From a phage: a DNA stretch of 64,000 nt. The notes beneath the pieces are model-generated. The model was not told where the DNA came from. It saw nothing but the letters and a program-made list of their open reading frames with translations, and did no database searches. Each line of letters starts with the position of its first letter. The first letter of the stretch is position 1. The stretch lies in sequence record OZ346212.1; one strand, given 5' to 3'. Below are positions 31,904 through 54,063 of this stretch, in pieces. The translations under genes were made by a program, and so were the position numbers.

Positions 31904-32437
31904 CTACAAATGGTCGCTGAGGGTGTCAAGAAAATTATCCCGTTCTTTCTCAGAGTTTTCATGTGTGTAGCTGAAAAACATATCGAGAATAACCTTATTG
32001 ATATATTCCAGCTCCTCTGTGTTCAGATGCTTAGCAGGATCTACAATGACATCCCAAATATCATACAGACCGCACTCATGATACCCATAACGCCACTCAA
32101 TTGTCAAGCTGAGCGGCAAATCTTTACCTTCACAAACAACCTTCCATCTACATATGTTGGTATCTGGTCGTACCTGTGCACGGTACACCTGCACAAAATC
32201 CAATTTGAATTTGAGGTACTCGTCATACAATTTAAGCACAAAGCTCTCGATTTGTGGAGACACTTTTGCAGCAAACTGTGCGTATTCGTACTTGCACTGG
32301 ATGATCTTTCTGCGTTTTGCAGTTAAATTTTTTGCCGCCAGTTGTTCTTCAGTGTATCTCCACCTACGATCAACAAACGCAACAGGGTCTTTGTCCCCAT
32401 AGAGGTCTTCCCAGTTAATCAGAAGCATACCTGTCAC
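31904..32437 (-). CDS. hypothetical protein
   Basis: ORF track. Confidence 0.55.
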   Translation of the reverse strand: MTGMLLINWEDLYGDKDPVAFVDRRWRYTEEQLAAKNLTAKRRKIIQCKYEYAQFAAKVSPQIESFVLKLYDEYLKFKLDFVQVYRAQVRPDTNICRWKVVCEGKDLPLSLTIEWRYGYHECGLYDIWDVIVDPAKHLNTEELEYINKVILDMFFSYTHENSEKERDNFLDTLSDHL

Positions 32438-32704: not shown

Positions 32705-33103
32705 TTACTGAACAGAGCGCGGTGCTGGGAAGGATAACTCTTCTAAAGAGAAGATTTCATTTCCTACCACCCAAGTTGCTGGGTCATCTGGATCAACAGG
32801 TTGGATAATCATTACCTCATCCGCCTCGCACACACGTTTCCCACCCATAGTAGCGTCAGCCACTAACATACGCGGCTCTTCAGAAATGCACAGGTAGCCA
32901 CCTCGGCCCACTGTTCCTTCCACGGGATCCTGCCCTTTGACCACAATGAATACCTTCTCTCCTGTGGCGATATTACTTTTCACACTAACAGTTTGACCAA
33001 CTTTAGATGTACCGATCTTGGTGGCTTCAAACATTAAATCCCGAATTACTGTTGCATAGTTGCCGGACACTTTCTTACCTTCTTTAGTAATCTCAATCTT
33101 CAT
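32705..33103 (-). CDS. hypothetical protein
   Basis: ORF track. Confidence 0.5.
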   Translation of the reverse strand: MKIEITKEGKKVSGNYATVIRDLMFEATKIGTSKVGQTVSVKSNIATGEKVFIVVKGQDPVEGTVGRGGYLCISEEPRMLVADATMGGKRVCEADEVMIIQPVDPDDPATWVVGNEIFSLEELSFPAPRSVQ

Positions 33104-33339
33104 AACCTAGGCTCCTTAAATGAATCTATGTAATCAATTAAATCCCAAGCATCGCGATGGGCTGTCAGAGGGTATACTTCTCCGAGAGGGATCATAGCAA
33201 TAAGTCTATCAAAAACCCAGTCTGGACGCAACATTTTATGGTGATATTCCCACTCACCTTCCACAGATTTTTTCTGAGTGATCAGGATCTCTGTGTAGTG
33301 TTTCGCCTGTCTTGAGTAGATTGAAAATGACTTGTACAT
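33100..33339 (-). CDS. hypothetical protein
   Basis: Start moved to ATG at 33339. Confidence 0.45.
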   Translation of the reverse strand: MYKSFSIYSRQAKHYTEILITQKKSVEGEWEYHHKMLRPDWVFDRLIAMIPLGEVYPLTAHRDAWDLIDYIDSFKEPRL

Positions 33340-33374
33340 AAAGACCCCCTCTTGTTGAAAACAACAATACACAA

Positions 33375-33659
33375 CTACCAGGTTACTGTCAAGTAGGCAA
33401 CCGTATTATTTTTCTCTGGGGAGATGCCAACAACATCTACCTGCAGACCTCCTGCCCTTAAATCTCCAACAATGTGCGGGAAGTAATCTGAGAGATGCGA
33501 GGGTAGATTTATCGAAAATCCGCACCCCAGAAAGCCTGCTAACGCTTTATTTTGTATCTCCCCTACAATCGCATCATAAATGGAGTTAAGCTCGTCAGGG
33601 AGCGTTACAGGACGTTTTAGCGCTAACTGGTGTAATTTGTCCTTAGCACTCATTTTCAT
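33375..33659 (-). CDS. hypothetical protein
   Basis: Start ATG 33659 overlaps upstream TGA (ATGA). Confidence 0.5.
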   Translation of the reverse strand: MKMSAKDKLHQLALKRPVTLPDELNSIYDAIVGEIQNKALAGFLGCGFSINLPSHLSDYFPHIVGDLRAGGLQVDVVGISPEKNNTVAYLTVTW

Positions 33660-34189
33660 TTCAGGTCTACCTCTGGTGGTGCCAACCACATAAATGGCGG
33701 CAAGCCTAAACGGTTTTTCTTATCCCACACAAAATATGCATATGCTTGCCCGTCAGTTCTGCCATTTGATTGAAAAGATGGACGCTTAGATATTGTGATC
33801 ACAGTGGTAGGTGCATTATCAAGCCACCATTCAAATCTGGCTTTGCTTTCCAGAAAATTAAGACGCAAAAGCATAATAACTACGTCAGCATCTTTCAACG
33901 CCTTGTCTACAAACTCACGAGCCAAACTGTATGGTGGGTTGGTGATAATACAGTCAACATGGTTGTATTCTGTATTCAGATAGTCAACACCTTCTTGGAT
34001 TTCTCCCCATGCAGATCCTAACGGCATACGGGAGTAGAACACACCTGAGGCACTATTCCTGCAAGGCTCTAAGTAGGTCCAGTCTTCTGGGAACGGAATA
34101 AGGTCATACAGCCCTTCTGCACACCACTCCGGTGTCACATACTCATCGTAGGCGTTACGTTGTTCATCAGGTTTTCGAGCACAAGTCAT
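33656..34189 (-). CDS. DNA N6-adenine (or N4-cytosine) methyltransferase, small phage type
   Basis: Catalytic motif IV in VDCIITNPPYSLA. Confidence 0.6.
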   Translation of the reverse strand: MTCARKPDEQRNAYDEYVTPEWCAEGLYDLIPFPEDWTYLEPCRNSASGVFYSRMPLGSAWGEIQEGVDYLNTEYNHVDCIITNPPYSLAREFVDKALKDADVVIMLLRLNFLESKARFEWWLDNAPTTVITISKRPSFQSNGRTDGQAYAYFVWDKKNRLGLPPFMWLAPPEVDLK

Positions 34190-34240
34190 GCAAATCTCCA
34201 GATCATAAAAGCCCTCCGAAGAGGGCTTTAGAATTAATGT

Positions 34241-35290
34241 TTAAGCTTCTTCGACAATTCCTGCACCCAGGATTTTTTCATTGAGCTCTTTTGCTGTTTT
34301 AATAATATTGTCCACCAGACGCTTGCGAGTCTTATCTTTTACCTTAACCTCTTCACCGCCGTTCAGGGTTGTCTTCAATTGGGACAGAATGTCTTGAAGT
34401 TCAACGACAGAGAATCGCTGCAGATCTTCTGAGGTAATCTCGCCTAAGGCAATCTTAACGGTCTCACCACTTTCCATCTGCAGGTTCAGGAACACAGTGT
34501 GAACATCACCTTTCGAACCACCCGCTTTTGCAGATTCAACAGCATGAACTAGCTCATCTAAAGAGGTGCACTGGTGAATCTCCGGAAGACCTGCTTCACC
34601 TAGCACACCTTCTTCATCACCTTTTGCCAAAAGCTTTTTAGGTTTTTGTCCGTTCTGGATGCGTTGTATGTTGCCTTCATCCAGAATGATAGCTCCAGTT
34701 CGAGCTGCCAGCTCCTCTCCGTCCAACCACACTTCGCCACCCGCTGTGATGGATGCGATCTCATCTTCTGTCAGCACCCAACCGTAGTATTTTTCGATCA
34801 GGCGTTCGAAACGTTTTTTCCAGTAGCTGACCTGAGTATTCATGTTCACACCATTGCCATAAGTGCCGCCTTGATAGTAGTGGAACATAAACTCTGTGTC
34901 CGGAGCCACAGTGCGTTCTTTGCAACCCAGCCATAGGATTGTTCCAGCAGAGCAGCACATCCCTTCAGCATGTGCAACAACGCTTGCCTGAGACTCGCGG
35001 AATGCCTGTAGATAAGCCATTGCAATGTGCACGCAACCCCCAGGGCTATTGATGATCACACGAATGCTTTCTTCCGGCTGAGCCATACGGATCGTCTGCA
35101 GACGAGACATATGATCCTGCAGGTCCTCCAAATCGTCGATATAAAGAACGTGGTCAACAACAGGTGTTGGGTAGCTGTATGTTTCCATAATACCACCCGG
35201 CATACCAAACATTTTATTACTCATAGGTTCGAAACCGTTCTGTTTTTCTTTCATGCCGTGTACCATGGTTCTGCGAGGTGTTAAATTCAT
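34241..35290 (-). CDS. ClpP-family serine peptidase with C-terminal extension
   Basis: IINSPGG, GMCCSAG (Ser), MFHYYQGG (His) parallel ClpP INSPGG / GQAASMG / MIHQPLGG; ~130 extra C-terminal residues. Confidence 0.7.
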   Translation of the reverse strand: MNLTPRRTMVHGMKEKQNGFEPMSNKMFGMPGGIMETYSYPTPVVDHVLYIDDLEDLQDHMSRLQTIRMAQPEESIRVIINSPGGCVHIAMAYLQAFRESQASVVAHAEGMCCSAGTILWLGCKERTVAPDTEFMFHYYQGGTYGNGVNMNTQVSYWKKRFERLIEKYYGWVLTEDEIASITAGGEVWLDGEELAARTGAIILDEGNIQRIQNGQKPKKLLAKGDEEGVLGEAGLPEIHQCTSLDELVHAVESAKAGGSKGDVHTVFLNLQMESGETVKIALGEITSEDLQRFSVVELQDILSQLKTTLNGGEEVKVKDKTRKRLVDNIIKTAKELNEKILGAGIVEEA

Positions 35291-35350
35291 GAGAAATCCT
35301 TAATATTGGAAGTTGAAAGCTATTTATTTAAACCTGATTCACATTTACCT

Positions 35351-35662
35351 TTATTTAGCAATCACTATGGAATACTTACGATTGTCAGAAGCATCACAAC
35401 TCAATGATTGCCAGTCTACCACATACCACGTATCATTGTCAACAATTACTTTATCGCCTGTTCTGTAGCAAGTGCTGCTTTCAATAATTCGAGACTCGAT
35501 AAAGAATCTGTGTCGGCGCTCACGTAGCAACGCTAAGTTAATTATATTACCACCGCTGTCCTTGGTCCACACATTCTTGGATCCCTTATTTGCCAAAATT
35601 GTCTCGCCGTTATAGACAAACAGGCAGTATATTTTATTCAGTTTCTCTTGTATTGTAGCCAT
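35351..35662 (-). CDS. hypothetical protein
   Basis: ORF track. Confidence 0.5.
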   Translation of the reverse strand: MATIQEKLNKIYCLFVYNGETILANKGSKNVWTKDSGGNIINLALLRERRHRFFIESRIIESSTCYRTGDKVIVDNDTWYVVDWQSLSCDASDNRKYSIVIAK

Positions 35663-35763
35663 ACTGTCCTTCTCTCTGTTTTGTCCGATAATAATATCTA
35701 AAGCTTACCTATTTGTCAACAACTGTTTTAGATATTTAAGGGTGGAATAACCACCCTTCTGTA

Positions 35764-36552
35764 TTACTCGGAAACAGGGGTCCAAATATGATTTGCACGA
35801 TCCTCAATAAGATTGAGTGCGATCTGACGACCCAACCCAGAACGAACGACATCGTCTGGACTATCAAAGCTGATCATTCCAACCTCAGGATCTGGATGAC
35901 GAGTAAAGAAATCCGTCACCCATGCAAGGCCAGATTTACCAGGGATGTCACGTTGGCTATTATCACCCATAATTACAAGGGTGGCTTGATCAGAGATCCT
36001 TGTGATAATTGACAACATTTCTTCAGGGTTAGTTTGCTGTGCCTCGTCAATCAGGACAAAGCATCGCTCATCGAAACTACGACCACGAATGCTTTCAACT
36101 TCACAAATCTCGATACGGCTGTTCTGACCGTCTCCCAGCATTGCGGCAAAAGCACCTTTGCCAACACGACGACAAATCGTGTCCATCATGCTTCGAAGAT
36201 AGGGCCACAGTTTCTGCATTGCATTTCCAGGTTTAAATCCTGAAGTCTTTCCTGTCTGAACGTAAGGACGTGCAACAATAATCTTATCAATCTCGTTCTT
36301 ACGCAGAAGATCACCTGCATATGCAGATGCCATGAATGTCTTACCGGATCCAAACACACCGTTTACAATAATAATCTTACGTGACCCTAGATAATCAAGA
36401 TACTTTTGCTGCTTCTTATTCATTGGTCTGAGAGCTGGAGCGGTGTGCTCTCTTTCGTCAGCAAATTTCTCAGCAGCCTTACGCAGGCGATCAGATTTGC
36501 GAGCCTCTCTAGCTTCATCACGCATGCGTTTTGTTTCTTTAGCTCGACCCAT
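35764..36552 (-). CDS. phoH: PhoH-like ATPase
   Basis: Walker A GVFGSGKTFMA; Walker B VLIDEAQ; basic N-terminus. Confidence 0.75.
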   Translation of the reverse strand: MGRAKETKRMRDEAREARKSDRLRKAAEKFADEREHTAPALRPMNKKQQKYLDYLGSRKIIIVNGVFGSGKTFMASAYAGDLLRKNEIDKIIVARPYVQTGKTSGFKPGNAMQKLWPYLRSMMDTICRRVGKGAFAAMLGDGQNSRIEICEVESIRGRSFDERCFVLIDEAQQTNPEEMLSIITRISDQATLVIMGDNSQRDIPGKSGLAWVTDFFTRHPDPEVGMISFDSPDDVVRSGLGRQIALNLIEDRANHIWTPVSE

Positions 36553-45202: not shown

Positions 45203-46186
45203 TTAACCTTTCACGAAGTGGTTATTAAGCAGTTGTCTGTGCTGAACCCACCCACAAAAGTTGGCAGACCAGAATTTACCATCACGGTCTTGATGGGTTA
45301 CACCTTCCTGCCAAGTACTGATGTCTTGTGTGATTTCACATGAAGACAGGTAGTAGTTTAAACGTTCCATTGCGTTATCGTGATCCATAGGTGTTGCCTG
45401 GTGCTCGTAAGGGCTTGCATGAATACGATCCCCACCAATCAATTTTTTAGCCACACTGTCTGCCTTTTCAAACGTGCTGTCAATATTTCGATAAGATACT
45501 TGTGCACAGCAACTAGCACTGATAGACAGAGCTTCTTTAGTATCGAGAATGCAGAGCTTTCCTTCTGTGTCACGTACAGCGTAGTTAAACTCCCCGTCCA
45601 AATAAACGTGCTCTACATATGGAGTGTGCCATTGACCCGGTTTAAGGATTTCAGGAGTGCTATTCACAAGAGCCTCCCACATACAATTAGCTAACATCTG
45701 AATCGTAGGATCCGCATCGTGCCAGCAACGGAGGTGGAAAAAATTATTCCACTCGGTGCTTGTTACAACTGTTTTCATGCGCTGAAAAGGCTCCACTAAG
45801 CGGTTACATACTTGCTTATGGTAACCAGCAAGGGCAAACTTCTCTGCATGCCAAGCGGCGTTTTTTGCAGCTTCTTTCCAAAACTCTTCCGGAGTTAGCT
45901 CCATATCAGTGTACTCTACACGGATCTTTTGATCGTGTTCCCCACCATCTTCCATTCCTCGCTTATTTACACCGAAGCGAACTGGCATTGCCGGATTCTC
46001 CACAATCTGTTGCAGCATCTTTCCGACAGGCACTGCACGGGAAGACATGGCGTTTCGGCTGAACACTCGGTGCGTCATAAGCTCTGAGTGAATAATTCGA
46101 GGATACTCTAGCTCAAAAGTGGTGATGCGCTTACCTTTCTCGGAAATGCTGTCAGCAATGATCTTTGCAGTGCACAGTTTTAGCAT
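45203..46186 (-). CDS. thyX: flavin-dependent thymidylate synthase
   Basis: ThyX-type motif THRVFSRNAMSSR (H-R-X7-S). Confidence 0.65.
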   Translation of the reverse strand: MLKLCTAKIIADSISEKGKRITTFELEYPRIIHSELMTHRVFSRNAMSSRAVPVGKMLQQIVENPAMPVRFGVNKRGMEDGGEHDQKIRVEYTDMELTPEEFWKEAAKNAAWHAEKFALAGYHKQVCNRLVEPFQRMKTVVTSTEWNNFFHLRCWHDADPTIQMLANCMWEALVNSTPEILKPGQWHTPYVEHVYLDGEFNYAVRDTEGKLCILDTKEALSISASCCAQVSYRNIDSTFEKADSVAKKLIGGDRIHASPYEHQATPMDHDNAMERLNYYLSSCEITQDISTWQEGVTHQDRDGKFWSANFCGWVQHRQLLNNHFVKG

Positions 46187-46981: not shown

Positions 46982-47592
46982 TCTTCTTGGGCCTCTTTAG
47001 CATCAATATACTTGCACACAATCTCCGATGCACATTCCCAAGGTGCACCTTCAGGGTTTACAACATCGAACTCAATTCCTTTTATTCCGTTCTTTTCCAG
47101 ACTTAGATAGGTTCTGGAATCATTTCCCCAGTCATATCCGACACGGTGAATACGGAACAACAACAGATCTCCACCTGTGCTGTACGCGTACTCGCTAAGG
47201 CATGCCAGCTCCTCTTTGAATCCACCATCGGAGTAAACAACAACCCCTTTACCTTTAGGGAAATCTTTCTTCAAAGATGCGACTGCGGCTTTACCGAAAG
47301 CATCTTCACCAAAGATAGGTTTAATCAGATTTTCACTACAATGGATCATCCATTCTCGCGGAGAAACATGCTTGCCGTCTATCATTAAGAAAGGGCAAGG
47401 CTCTTCTTTGTAGTGGCGGTCATAAAGTGCATTCCAGAGTTGAGGAGTTACACCAGCTGCCTTAATTGCCACACTGAAGAGCATCTCCTTAACCTCACGG
47501 TGGTGTGAGTTAGGAATAGCTTCCAACAAGAGATCTGCAATGTGATCCTTACCACTGCTGGGTGGGGCGTTAAGAACAATAATATCCATCAA
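46975..47592 (-). CDS. deoxynucleoside monophosphate kinase
   Basis: P-loop NAPPSSGKD like T4 gp1 SGKD. Confidence 0.6.
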   Translation of the reverse strand: MMDIIVLNAPPSSGKDHIADLLLEAIPNSHHREVKEMLFSVAIKAAGVTPQLWNALYDRHYKEEPCPFLMIDGKHVSPREWMIHCSENLIKPIFGEDAFGKAAVASLKKDFPKGKGVVVYSDGGFKEELACLSEYAYSTGGDLLLFRIHRVGYDWGNDSRTYLSLEKNGIKGIEFDVVNPEGAPWECASEIVCKYIDAKEAQEEC

Positions 47593-47792
47593 AAACCTCC
47601 GTGGTATTCTTCAACTGCATCAATAATACTTTTACACTTATCTACCAGCTCGTTAGCCACTACAGCATCGTCTTCCCAAACAGCTTCCTCGATCTGATCA
47701 AGCAATGATCGCATCTTACCCATCATTTCTGGGATAAAGTCTTCTGAAAAGCTGTCTGGAATTGTTAACTTTAGTGTCATTGCGTTCTCCAA
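47589..47792 (-). CDS. hypothetical protein
   Basis: ORF track. Confidence 0.45.
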   Translation of the reverse strand: MENAMTLKLTIPDSFSEDFIPEMMGKMRSLLDQIEEAVWEDDAVVANELVDKCKSIIDAVEEYHGGF

Positions 47793-47807
47793 TCATACTA
47801 TGCGTTA

Positions 47808-48266
47808 TTAGAAGTTTGTTTTTACACGTCCCTTTTCATCAACCTCGTTGTTGGCTAGAAGCGTTACAAAGTCTGTGAAACGGACATGAAGAACTCTTTT
47901 CTTATCAAGGTATCCTAAAGCCACCCCTGAGAAATTTAGCATCAAAGGGGCTAAAGAAGCTCTGGCACTGAAATGCTGTTGTTCTACCCTTCCAACACCC
48001 TTAGTGTAGGATGGGTTAAGATTGTAAGTTCTGAATCCCAGTTTTGTTGGAGCTTTAGAATTAAAAACAACTTTATAGCGTTTCTTACTCAACTTATGCT
48101 CCAGGATAAGCATTCCCTTATCACCCTTGATAAGTTGAAAATCTGTAAAGTGCTCTTTTAATACGAAAGGTAGTGCCAGTCCCATCGCCTGCCCCCTTTG
48201 TACCGCTGTCTCACCAAAAGCTTTTGCATCAGTAAGTTCTTTGGTCAAGTCTATGCTTTTGATCAT
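47808..48266 (-). CDS. hypothetical protein; possible 2H-phosphoesterase fold
   Basis: Two H-x-T/S motifs (EHFTDF near residue 39, QHFSAR near residue 98); weak. Confidence 0.5.
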   Translation of the reverse strand: MIKSIDLTKELTDAKAFGETAVQRGQAMGLALPFVLKEHFTDFQLIKGDKGMLILEHKLSKKRYKVVFNSKAPTKLGFRTYNLNPSYTKGVGRVEQQHFSARASLAPLMLNFSGVALGYLDKKRVLHVRFTDFVTLLANNEVDEKGRVKTNF

Positions 48267-49047
48267 ACCTAGTCTCCAAAATGTATTGTAGTTCTTTCTT
48301 ACCTATACTCTTCATTCCGGCAGTCTTACCTGCTTCTTCTTGAAAAGAAGAATAGCATTCAGCAAACACTCTGTCAACACCGTCAACTAAAGATTTTATG
48401 AAATATGTTGATTCTTCAGATTTTGGGTCATCCTCCCCCAATACTTTTCCAGCATTATACCCAACACGTCTTACACAGAAGTCGTAGTCATCTGGAGTGC
48501 TAAAAGAAAATAACTTATTCTCCCCAATCTCTACAGGATCCCTGTTGCACGCCTTTTTCTCCCAAATTTGGAAAACACACGGCACGTCATAAGGTTTGCC
48601 ATTAAGTAGAAACGAGTTCTTAGGGCACCTTTCACTGTAGACAAGGTGCATCGACATGTCCAGTTTGTTTGCAAAAAATATTTTTTCAAATGTCCGTGGC
48701 AAGATGAAGGCTATAGCCCCTCCAAGCTCTAGCAATGATGCACAATGGTTAAAGAATTTGCAAGCTAAAGATGAATTCTTGCCAAATGGTGGGTTACCTA
48801 TGAAGACATCTGCCTTGGGATGCACCTCCAAGAAGTTTGCCTGAATGCACGGTGTTGGTCCTTCAAATTCAGGATCTGGTACTAGATCGTAAGACAGTAT
48901 CTCTGAAAATAGTTTTGAAAAAGAACCCCTTCCAGCAGAAGGCTCAACGTATGCACAATTTCCATACTTATCTTTTACTTTACCAACAAGATATTCTGCA
49001 TACTCAGGGTTTGTGTAATATTTGTCGTTGGACTCTTTCTTGCTCAA
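48229..49047 (-). CDS. DNA N6-adenine methyltransferase
   Basis: Motif I VEPSAGRGSF, motif IV FIGNPPFG; TTG start after RBS GGAGG. Confidence 0.7.
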   Translation of the reverse strand: MSKKESNDKYYTNPEYAEYLVGKVKDKYGNCAYVEPSAGRGSFSKLFSEILSYDLVPDPEFEGPTPCIQANFLEVHPKADVFIGNPPFGKNSSLACKFFNHCASLLELGGAIAFILPRTFEKIFFANKLDMSMHLVYSERCPKNSFLLNGKPYDVPCVFQIWEKKACNRDPVEIGENKLFSFSTPDDYDFCVRRVGYNAGKVLGEDDPKSEESTYFIKSLVDGVDRVFAECYSSFQEEAGKTAGMKSIGKKELQYILETRYDQKHRLDQRTY

Positions 49048-49056
49048 AGTGCCTCC

Positions 49057-49084
49057 AAAAGGAAAAGGGAGGCGCAAGCCTCCC
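49057..49084 (-). terminator. intrinsic terminator (minus strand)
   Basis: GGGAGGC-loop-GCCTCCC followed on minus strand by TTTTCCTTTT. Confidence 0.55.
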
Positions 49085-49093
49085 TATACTTGA

Positions 49094-50083
49094 TTAGATT
49101 ATCTGAATCAGGGTGTTTTTCATTTCTTCTCTGGTACGGATGTTGTTACGGTCACGAACAACAGATCCACAACCTTCGCAGCGATATGTTTTAAATGCAC
49201 TCAGTTGAGTATACGCCAAAGCTTCTTCCTCGTGAAGGTGTTCTCCACCGCAGCGTGGGCAACGAACTTTTGGCTCCTCATCCTGGTAGTACAATGACAT
49301 ATTGGGGTGCTGCTTAGCAAACGGGCGTGCCAGCAAATACAGGCCTTCCAGAGATAGGATATCACCAACATTGTACTCCCGCATCTGTTTAAACGCCTCA
49401 AGATCACCATGAACACACTTGATCCACATTTCAAATGTGTGGTCAATCAGTTTCTGTCGGGCAAGTTGGAAGTATTTGCATGCATACTCCAAAGTGTTTG
49501 CATTCAAACGGAATGCCTTCTTGATCATTTTAAGGGTGTCAACCTCTTTGTATGGGCTTGTTGGAGGCAACCCGTGAAATGCAAATCGTTGGTTTGCCCA
49601 CCCACAGTCAAAACCTGAATTGTGGGCTACTGCGACATCACATTTATCCAGATAATACCACAAGTCCTGAATCAATTCGAGGTCATTGTGAATATCCTCA
49701 TCCCACATTTTGTAATCGGGAAGAGCGCAGTCAACCACACTAGGACTGTCTAACCACTTACCTGCGAAAGTTAGCATATAGGGCATAATTTCAATACCGC
49801 AGGTTTGAATGTTGGTCTTATAGTGCCCAAAGAACCAGCCGTTTGTTGGTGATGTTTCTGTATCATACACCCAAACTTTAGCTCCTTTGTGTTCTTCAAG
49901 GAAGCGCTCAGTTGCTTCTCCTACAATCTCTGACATATTCTCTTGTGCACGTTTAAGCTGTAGTCGGATCCAACTCTCACGTGACTCACGGCCTAAAAAT
50001 TCACGAGCAATTTGTCTATTAGTGTATCCCTGCTGCTTTAGTGTTAAAATTTGCTCAAGAGTTAACTTTGTCATCATCGTCAA
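49094..50083 (-). CDS. DEDD-type 3'-5' exonuclease with N-terminal HTH and C-terminal zinc ribbon
   Basis: Exo I VYDTETS; Exo III VAHNSGFD; CPRCGG...CEGCG. Confidence 0.7.
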   Translation of the reverse strand: MTMMTKLTLEQILTLKQQGYTNRQIAREFLGRESRESWIRLQLKRAQENMSEIVGEATERFLEEHKGAKVWVYDTETSPTNGWFFGHYKTNIQTCGIEIMPYMLTFAGKWLDSPSVVDCALPDYKMWDEDIHNDLELIQDLWYYLDKCDVAVAHNSGFDCGWANQRFAFHGLPPTSPYKEVDTLKMIKKAFRLNANTLEYACKYFQLARQKLIDHTFEMWIKCVHGDLEAFKQMREYNVGDILSLEGLYLLARPFAKQHPNMSLYYQDEEPKVRCPRCGGEHLHEEEALAYTQLSAFKTYRCEGCGSVVRDRNNIRTREEMKNTLIQII

Positions 50084-50089
50084 AATTCC

Positions 50090-50311
50090 TTAGTAAAACT
50101 GAAGAATGTCTTTTAAAGCGAAGTCACGATATTCGCCCTTGTCTACATCAAAGGCATGCATCAACCACTGCTCTTCTTTATGATACTCTGTAGAGCCAAA
50201 CCATAAATTAGGCTCAGTAACGCAGCGATCTGCAACAACACCTTTCCAGTTACGGTATTTCATCCTGATCAGGACTGAGTCGCAAGGATTGAATACCTTT
50301 TTCATCCCCAT
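50090..50311 (-). CDS. hypothetical protein
   Basis: ORF track. Confidence 0.4.
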   Translation of the reverse strand: MGMKKVFNPCDSVLIRMKYRNWKGVVADRCVTEPNLWFGSTEYHKEEQWLMHAFDVDKGEYRDFALKDILQFY

Positions 50312-53264: not shown

Positions 53265-53558
53265 TCAAGACTTTTTAGTCTTTCTTGGAGAGCTTTTTGT
53301 TGATCTTTTCCTTTTGTGGTAGATTCCAAGTGCAGCGTTTTCTTGGGCGCACGTTTTAACAGTTCTCAGAGAAGAACTTTCAGCTTTAGGCAGGTTTAAC
53401 TCCCACCAACCGAGCCAGTAAAGTTCTGATTCCGACAGCTGCTCAGATTCAGCCTTCCGATACAATGATTGCATACCTCTAATGATGTCGTCCAGAGGTG
53501 TATCGAATACAAAAGCTGTCTTATCGAATTTCTCTTTTACAGGTCTCTTAGCCATCAA
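53265..53558 (-). CDS. hypothetical protein with basic C-terminus
   Basis: ORF track. Confidence 0.45.
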   Translation of the reverse strand: MMAKRPVKEKFDKTAFVFDTPLDDIIRGMQSLYRKAESEQLSESELYWLGWWELNLPKAESSSLRTVKTCAQENAALGIYHKRKRSTKSSPRKTKKS

Positions 53559-54063
53559 GGTAACCCTCTATCCACGAAAAGTCAGTCTTCCATTCTGGAA
53601 CTTTACTAAGCTCACGCCACTCTGCAAAGCAGTCTCGGTAATACGCCTCTGCCATACTCTTGGTGATCTTATTCACCTTAGCCAACTGATTAACTGCCTG
53701 AGCATACTTTCCACGGATATTTGCTAACCCAGGATGCACCGATGTGTGACAATCCGGGCACAGTGCTATCAGTCCGACAAGCCGGATCACTCCCTCTTCG
53801 AAAGTGTAAAGTTCATGACACTCCACTGGGTGTTTGCTGCCTTTACCGCCGCACACCTCACAAGTGTAGTTGGCTTCTCTATAGCACTTCTTACGTATCT
53901 TATCCCACTCACTCTTCTTCACAGCGTTTCGGAGGTTATTATACCAAGCTGTTTCTGGGATCAGTTGCACAATAAGCCTGCGTTCAGACTTCATTAAACG
54001 TCCGTCTTCCACGTGTTCTCCCTCATTCAAAGAAATGGGTGCGAGGGCAGGAACCTGCCTCAC
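53548..54063 (-). CDS. zinc-finger protein, possible HNH-like nuclease
   Basis: CEVCGG...ECHELY...CPDCH. Confidence 0.4.
   Translation of the reverse strand: MRQVPALAPISLNEGEHVEDGRLMKSERRLIVQLIPETAWYNNLRNAVKKSEWDKIRKKCYREANYTCEVCGGKGSKHPVECHELYTFEEGVIRLVGLIALCPDCHTSVHPGLANIRGKYAQAVNQLAKVNKITKSMAEAYYRDCFAEWRELSKVPEWKTDFSWIEGYLDG

Follow-up and report, generated by a model that had tools for sequence, protein, structure and literature searches.

Two adenine methyltransferase genes in an rV5-like phage

The window analyzed here is a stretch of 64,000 nucleotides of phage DNA (sequence record OZ346212.1). Its source is an rV5-like Vequintavirus. The window is colinear with the genome of Escherichia phage WalterGehring (Bas51, MZ501111), starting at Bas51 coordinate 68413. 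More than 100 Escherichia phage records match it at 95-99.9% identity, and positions 33000..36000 are 100% identical to phage magaca. An initial annotation had placed two DNA methyltransferase genes of the N6-adenine type at 33656..34189 and 48229..49047. Both ORFs are present on the minus strand with exactly these coordinates, and we refer to their products as MT1 and MT2, respectively. In more than 100 GenBank relatives, both genes carry the annotation 'putative N6 adenine methyltransferase'. It was also observed that about 20 'Campylobacter phage' records (MG0656xx, host C. jejuni) match positions 33000..36000 and 47500..50200, which contain the two methyltransferase regions. Identity is about 95-98% for the copies shown. 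The host label of these records is odd and may result from contamination or mislabelling.

MT1 (33656..34189, minus strand) is a minimal N6-adenine DNA methyltransferase of 177 aa with GATC-specific, Dam-like activity, as identified from its ORF, its phrog_799 match and its Bas51 orthologue. The gene starts with an ATG located 7 nt 3' of GGAG, and direct reading of the sequence places this ribosome-binding site at 34196..34199 on the minus strand. Direct reading also revealed a terminator-like hairpin upstream of MT1 (34208..34229, minus strand), past the stop of a ClpP-like gene at 34241, although this hairpin was absent from the output of a consensus terminator scan. The MT1 sequence includes ...VDCIITNPPYSLA..., and its motif-bearing stretch is ...HVDCIITNPPYSLA.... 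The motif I region is E41-P-C, D69 and D79 are present, and motif IV is T83-N-P-P-Y87. MT1 matches phrog_799 'DNA methyltransferase' with an E value of 5.5e-67. T83-N84-P85-P86 is invariant in 57 MT1 homologues and E41-P42 is conserved among them, whereas the glycine loop is degenerate in MT1 (EPCRNSASG versus EPCxGxG in the family). An AlphaFold (AF2) model of MT1 (pLDDT 90.2) has the class I SAM-methyltransferase Rossmann-like fold, and the best PDB matches by Foldseek are Dim1/KsgA, type I M subunits, CamA and M.BseCI.

MT1 resembles the small phage 'Dam' family (PF05869; TIGR01712; T1/HP1-type), whose members are single-domain enzymes of about 170 aa that have an NPPY-type motif IV and show GATC-type activity. 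Weak matches to this family were found for MT1 and for 17 of the 57 MT1 homologues. However, the MT1 scores are below the cut-offs, being 19.2 bits against Pfam PF05869 Dam (gathering threshold, 28.1) and 16.1 bits against TIGR01712 phage_N6A_met (cut-off, 97). Therefore, by curated thresholds, MT1 is not a member of this family but belongs to a family of its own, phrog_799. PF13651 EcoRI_methylase was also below its gathering threshold (20.0 versus 26.4 bits), the match to PADLOC MTase_II (E 1e-3) covered only 44 residues and not the full length, and a PDB sequence search with MT1 returned only noise. E. coli Dam and T4 Dam, which are alpha-class enzymes, make the same product, Gm6ATC on both strands, but their motifs come in another order and their DNA-binding domain is separate. 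Because a sequence match between MT1 and these enzymes is undetectable, their shared GATC specificity is convergent.

MT2 (48229..49047, minus strand) is an orphan N6-adenine DNA methyltransferase of 272 aa, assigned from its ORF and its phrog_5172 match to the gamma class (M.TaqI-like order) and the type II family. The start codon is a TTG at 49047, and a GGAGG ribosome-binding site lies four bases upstream (49052..49056, minus strand). The N-terminus obtained from this start, 'MSKKES..', agrees with those of homologues. A longer mechanical ORF that extends to 49077 was rejected because its start falls inside the intrinsic terminator that follows the DnaQ-like exonuclease gene (49066..49085, minus strand; 8-bp stem with 6 GC pairs and a T-rich tail). 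In the 272-aa numbering, motif I is VEPSAGRGSF (E35-P-S-A-G-R-G) and motif IV is IGNPPFGKN (N85-P-P-F). The initial annotation had read NPPY in the smaller enzyme and NPPF in the larger one, both of which are there, but the FxGxG that it reported for the latter literally reads SAGRG. MT2 matches phrog_5172 with an E value of 2.5e-129 and is identical to bas51_0200 at 270 of 272 residues. Among 65 MT2 homologues, G-N-P-P-F-G is invariant, residues E, P, S, G and G of EPSAGRG are likewise invariant, and the C-terminal domain is conserved (VPC.FQIW, RRVG..AG, TAG..S). The AF2 model of MT2 (pLDDT 91.8) also has the class I SAM-methyltransferase Rossmann-like fold, and Foldseek matched it to TrmN (top), M.TaqI, M.BseCI and CamA. 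Residues 8-253 align with positions 2-249 of the 269-position PADLOC profile MTase_II PDLC03255 (E 1.3e-33). Pfam and NCBIfam gave only sub-threshold matches for both MT1 and MT2; those of MT2 include PF07669 Eco57I (15.5 bits; gathering threshold, 25.3) and PF05175 MTS (13.7 bits; gathering threshold, 23). Some MT2 homologues bear precomputed PF26055. A PDB sequence search with MT2 alone found no match, and a viral fold search in BFVD returned only unnamed or generic methyltransferases, which carry no specificity information.

An NPPY-type tetrapeptide alone is not significant, because about 0.9 chance occurrences of [DNS]PP[YFW] are expected across the ORFs of the window and four were seen, two of them in junk ORFs. 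It is the PHROG matches, the invariant motifs and the AlphaFold/Foldseek folds that confirm both proteins as N6-adenine-type methyltransferases. None of the neighbours of MT1 (the ClpP-like gene and a 104-aa phrog_12158 ORF) or of MT2 (the DnaQ-like exonuclease gene and a 152-aa phrog_9938 ORF) is REase-like. The 152-aa ORF (47808..48266), which overlaps the 3' end of MT2 and whose PHROG has no assigned function, was considered as a hidden endonuclease and rejected, as hhalign gave a probability of 0.1 against the profile of the REase-like partner family described below. MT1 and MT2 are thus orphans, and a complete type II restriction-modification (R-M) system is absent.

In relatives, two additional methyltransferases are encoded a short way upstream of window position 1. 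One is the Type III Mod-like adenine methyltransferase bas51_0070 (441 aa; Bas51 L012:14456-15781, 2.6-4 kb upstream of the window start), and the other is a Dcm-like C5 methyltransferase (phrog_757; Bas51 L012:17042-17806). A third methyltransferase within the window, near the endolysin gene as in phage CarlMeissner, was ruled out. An HNH homing-type endonuclease gene (53548..54063, minus strand; phrog_5200, E 3.5e-72) lies there instead, whereas CarlMeissner has a 'putative C5-cytosine methyltransferase' and a homing endonuclease at this spot. This indicates that the methyltransferase complement varies among Vequintaviruses. The initial annotation saw no glucosyl- or hydroxymethyl-transferase, in agreement with the equivalent region of close relatives, where none is annotated. 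The gene at 45203..46186 (minus strand, 327 aa) was considered as a hydroxymethylase and rejected; it is ThyX-type and thymidylate-synthase-like, with a weak match to Pfam Thy1 (37 bits) and a strong match to the thymidylate synthase family phrog_85.

Methylation of GATC and GTAC in Bas51

The MT1 orthologue has been studied in Bas51. A 2025 study in PLoS Biology revealed that Bas51 escapers of retrons Asa1 and Squ1 were all mutated in 'an adenine methyltransferase', and this was confirmed for D69G, D79G and T83P by reconstruction of the mutants (PMC12548924). The Bas51 protein, bas51_0176, has the same length as MT1 and is identical to it at 175 of 177 residues, and a ClpP-like gene lies upstream in both phages. 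The two substitutions in MT1 (G162D and V174A) are both outside the catalytic motifs. D69, D79 and T83 are conserved in MT1, whereas positions 69, 79 and 83 of MT2 are Q, A and I. Nanopore sequencing detected 1405 methylated GATC adenines in wild-type Bas51 and 35 in the T83P mutant (PMC12548924). We counted 703 GATC sites in the Bas51 genome, corresponding to 1406 adenines. Since 1405 of the 1406 are methylated, MT1 methylates essentially every GATC. Only 35 of them are methylated in T83P in a dam+ host, and therefore host Dam does not substitute for MT1. During infection, this minimal 177-aa enzyme, which has no separate target-recognition domain, would methylate the GATC adenine on phage DNA and would thereby do the GATC methylation that host Dam leaves incomplete.

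Methylated adenines outside GATC and GTAC decreased from 576 in the wild type to 349 in T83P (PMC12548924). The loss of about 230 sites suggests some relaxed specificity of MT1, and the 349 remaining sites may belong to the Type III Mod. Over-expression of the Bas51 enzyme is toxic to E. coli, the enzyme triggers retrons Asa1 and Squ1, and the msDNA of both retrons carries GATC (PMC12548924). Thus, the activity, toxicity and retron-triggering of MT1 were already published in 2025 for an enzyme that is 99% identical. In the same study, mutation R87* in a 'putative glycosidase' of Bas51 abolished the defence by retron Asa1 (PMC12548924). Its orthologue in the window (31904..32428, minus strand) lies 1.2 kb downstream of MT1, is identical at 173 of 174 residues and conserves R87. 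The 'glycosidase' label is unsupported, because the protein has no Pfam match and its sole match is phrog_13467, a family of unknown function.

The same methylome contains a second signal, to which the paper assigns no enzyme. According to its supplementary table, 509 GTAC adenines are methylated in the wild type and 511 in T83P (PMC12548924). The Bas51 genome contains 258 GTAC sites by our count, that is, 516 adenines. GTAC is thus about 99% methylated on both strands with and without active MT1, and therefore a second, MT1-independent enzyme is at work. A caveat is that nanopore 6mA calls can include context-specific false positives. E. coli K-12 (Dam, Dcm and EcoKI) is not known to have a GTAC methylase. 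In the Bas51 annotation there are three adenine-methyltransferase candidates: MT1, MT2 (bas51_0200) and bas51_0070. From the evidence given below, we infer with good confidence that MT2 is the maker of GTAC m6A. The adenine methylation that the initial annotation anticipated for virion DNA is therefore borne out at essentially every GATC and GTAC of Bas51, a phage with 99%-identical copies of the two enzymes (PMC12548924). Literature on RsaI resistance, on the GTAC methylome of Sphingomonas and on other Vequintavirus methylomes yielded nothing further, and neither restriction digests nor methylation data are given in the paper on the rV5 genome.

Restriction, retrons and the role of the marks

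Methylation had also been proposed as the route by which the phage protects its DNA from host restriction. This proposal is not supported by published results. In the BASEL collection, Vequintavirinae proved 'exceptionally susceptible' to RM systems, against which they seem to have no effective protection, the systems tried being EcoKI, EcoCFT_I, EcoRI, EcoRV, EcoCFT_II and EcoP1_I (PMC8594841). MT1-type mutants of Bas51 plate like the wild type on K-12 without a retron (PMC12548924). The marks of MT1 and MT2 are thus no general protection from restriction. Site-specific protection is possible, and any such protection is limited to GATC and GTAC sites, because two 4-bp marks shield only targets containing them. 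Four of the six BASEL systems have well-known recognition sites, and none of these four is known to read GATC or GTAC.

The selective value of the marks would be a narrow masking against enzymes that read GATC or GTAC rather than a general anti-restriction function. Candidates for the enzymes masked are those of the MboI/DpnII and RsaI/PabI/HpyAXII types, along with KpnI (GGTACC); the cognate methylase of KpnI produces an identical GTm6AC mark. The window contains 349 GATC, 121 GTAC, 42 BclI, 3 KpnI, 23 EcoRV and 4 EcoRI sites. Among the 4-bp palindromes, only CTAG is more depleted than GTAC (Markov O/E of GTAC 0.61 in the window and 0.59 in Bas51), whereas GATC occurs at expectation in the window and in the Bas51 genome (O/E 1.0). 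The depletion of GTAC despite its methylation suggests a past or continuing pressure that methylation relieves incompletely.

Another purpose of the marks would be housekeeping: MT1 would restore Dam-type GATC marks on quickly replicating phage DNA, to prevent MutH from nicking unmethylated GATC or for the Dam-dependent control of replication, packaging or transcription, and MT2 would be a selfish or neutral remnant from the capture of an R-M system. Host Dam indeed lags, as seen from the 35 of 1406 adenines in T83P in a dam+ host; GATC, unlike GTAC, is not avoided in the genome; the broad RM sensitivity of Vequintavirinae fits a role other than anti-restriction; and regulatory roles of Dam enzymes from phages are well known, as in P1. 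However, the normal plating of MT1 mutants on K-12 means that no essential role is visible there, and orphan phage methyltransferases classically protect against cognate enzymes. We regard this purpose as a reasonable but less likely alternative to the narrow masking of GATC and GTAC sites. Retron triggering, which is a cost, is the sole phenotype of MT1 shown so far.

MT2 and the GTAC mark

MT2 belongs to a type II R-M methyltransferase family and has a catalytic domain, in which motif I precedes NPPF, and a C-terminal recognition domain. PADLOC assigns MT2 to Type II and bas51_0070 to Type III; the latter is a beta-class protein that matches PF01555 (E 4e-42) and, over its full length, PADLOC MTase_III (E 1.5e-205). 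Type III Mods usually act on short asymmetric sites, of which they methylate one strand, whereas methylation of a palindromic 4-mer on both its strands is what is typically seen with type II enzymes. Since GTAC is palindromic and is marked on both strands, MT2 is favoured over bas51_0070.

Comparison with known enzymes points in the same direction. MT2 has the same motif order as M.TaqI (TCGA) and M.HpyAXII (GTAC), from a TP helix to EPxxGxG and then to NPP(F/Y). The catalytic Asn lies at about 85-87, and a C-terminal recognition domain comes after it. MT2 differs from these two enzymes in being shorter (272 versus 421 and 331 aa, respectively) and in having no cognate endonuclease in the phage. 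The sequence similarity of MT2 to M.TaqI is marginal (E 0.05). M.CviQI and M.PabI are further GTAC-specific m6A methyltransferases. M.HpyAXII, which makes GTm6AC, is of the gamma class, resembles M.TaqI and has Asn87 as its catalytic residue (PMC2588503). This favours MT2 as the GTAC enzyme, as MT2 is of the same class and has its Asn at N85; the likeness rests on class, motif order and Asn position.

A further argument comes from bacterial homologues of MT2. We sampled 80 bacterial loci encoding MT2 homologues, with about 10 kb per genome. In 21 of them, a conserved gene of 200-220 aa adjoins the MT2 homologue, mostly directly downstream (L021, L029, L038, L040, L046-L048, L055, L057, L058, L060, L063, L067, L068, L080, L085, L088, L090, L092, L093 and L096). 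In the partner protein, E15, D41 and K57 never vary and form a PD-(D/E)xK-like arrangement (E..D..SxK signature), and Q8, H10, G11, K163, Q169, R171, Q173 and C174 are invariant as well. It matches the PADLOC REase_II model with an E value of 2.5e-14, while no Pfam, NCBIfam or PDB sequence match was found for the family. All of its 648 database homologues are named 'hypothetical'. In the sources searched, members of the bacterial family formed by MT2 homologues and this partner are annotated only as 'hypothetical' or 'RNA methylase'. The REase_II-like partner gene indicates, counter to the latter label, that the MT2 family is a family of DNA R-M methylases.

GTAC is also rare around these gene pairs. 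In the 21 loci with the partner, none of the other 15 4-bp palindromes is as depleted as GTAC, whose Markov O/E is 0.60 versus 0.81 in the 59 other loci, and this is the largest relative drop among the 16 palindromes (permutation p = 0.02). By depletion, GTAC ranks first or second in 13 of the 21 partner loci versus 21 of the 59 others (Fisher p = 0.04). These statistics are modest, with p values of about 0.02-0.06. At three partner loci (L029, L068 and L090), GTAC is not depleted, and thus specificity may vary within the MT2 family. Because MT2 homologues pair with a REase-like gene in GTAC-depleted loci, MT2 is favoured as the GTAC enzyme in the phage as well. The partner family is a candidate for an uncharacterised type II restriction endonuclease, possibly GTAC-specific.

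It is unlikely that the orthologue of bas51_0070 makes GTAC m6A and that MT2 has another DNA specificity, which would account for part of the methylated adenines outside GATC and GTAC, or is inactive in the laboratory. Bas51 does encode this third adenine methyltransferase, and the 349 methylated adenines outside GATC and GTAC that persist in T83P point to at least one more specificity, or to noise. However, about 349 sites is close to the yield of a 5-bp asymmetric site in 140 kb, which fits a Mod better than a palindrome that is about 99% marked on both strands does, and genes resembling type II REases accompany MT2 homologues in loci poor in GTAC.

It is very improbable that MT2 is an RNA (rRNA/tRNA) N6-adenosine methyltransferase of the METTL5/TrmN type acting on host or phage RNA: although MT2 shares the NPPFG motif with METTL5 and the catalytic-domain fold with METTL5, Ta1320 and TrmN, a PDB search with its family profile gives Ta1320 (E 2e-4) and, more weakly, METTL5 (E 0.05), TrmN is its top Foldseek match, 7 of 65 family members have sub-threshold RrnaAD matches and JGI names its homologues 'predicted RNA methylase', this is contradicted by the full-length match to the Type II DNA methyltransferase model (E 1.3e-33), by the REase_II-like genes adjoining homologues in 21 of 80 bacterial loci, by M.TaqI, M.BseCI and CamA matching the MT2 structure equally well, and by the confinement of the similarity to the catalytic half, as the conserved C-terminal domain of MT2 has no counterpart in RNA enzymes.

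MT2 as a DNA enzyme would most likely methylate the GTAC adenine on both strands, and MT1 and MT2 together would mark all GATC and GTAC sites of the packaged DNA. We estimate at roughly 75% the probability of the joint explanation, that is, that MT1 and MT2 are two orphan SAM-dependent N6-adenine methyltransferases, specific for GATC and GTAC, respectively, which provide narrow site-specific masking. As for its origin, MT2 homologues and their 200-220 aa partner might form a widespread GTAC-targeting type II R-M family from which the phage captured the methylase alone, a proposal for and against which we see the evidence as evenly balanced. If it is true, the captured orphan antidote MT2 explains the GTAC m6A signal of the published Bas51 methylome.

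The presence of the two methyltransferases is real, ordinary and mostly already known. Our analysis adds that the site counts match the published methylome quantitatively (1405 of 1406 GATC and 509 of 516 GTAC adenines), that the GTAC m6A component can, by inference, be assigned to the MT2 gene, and that the MT2 family is linked to an unnamed type II endonuclease-like family. MT1, which has 4-bp specificity in 177 aa without a recognisable target-recognition domain, is an attractive minimal model or tool enzyme. Two 4-bp marks are insufficient for general restriction resistance, and MT1 exemplifies that a phage methyltransferase is a liability, sensed by retrons, as well as a shield.
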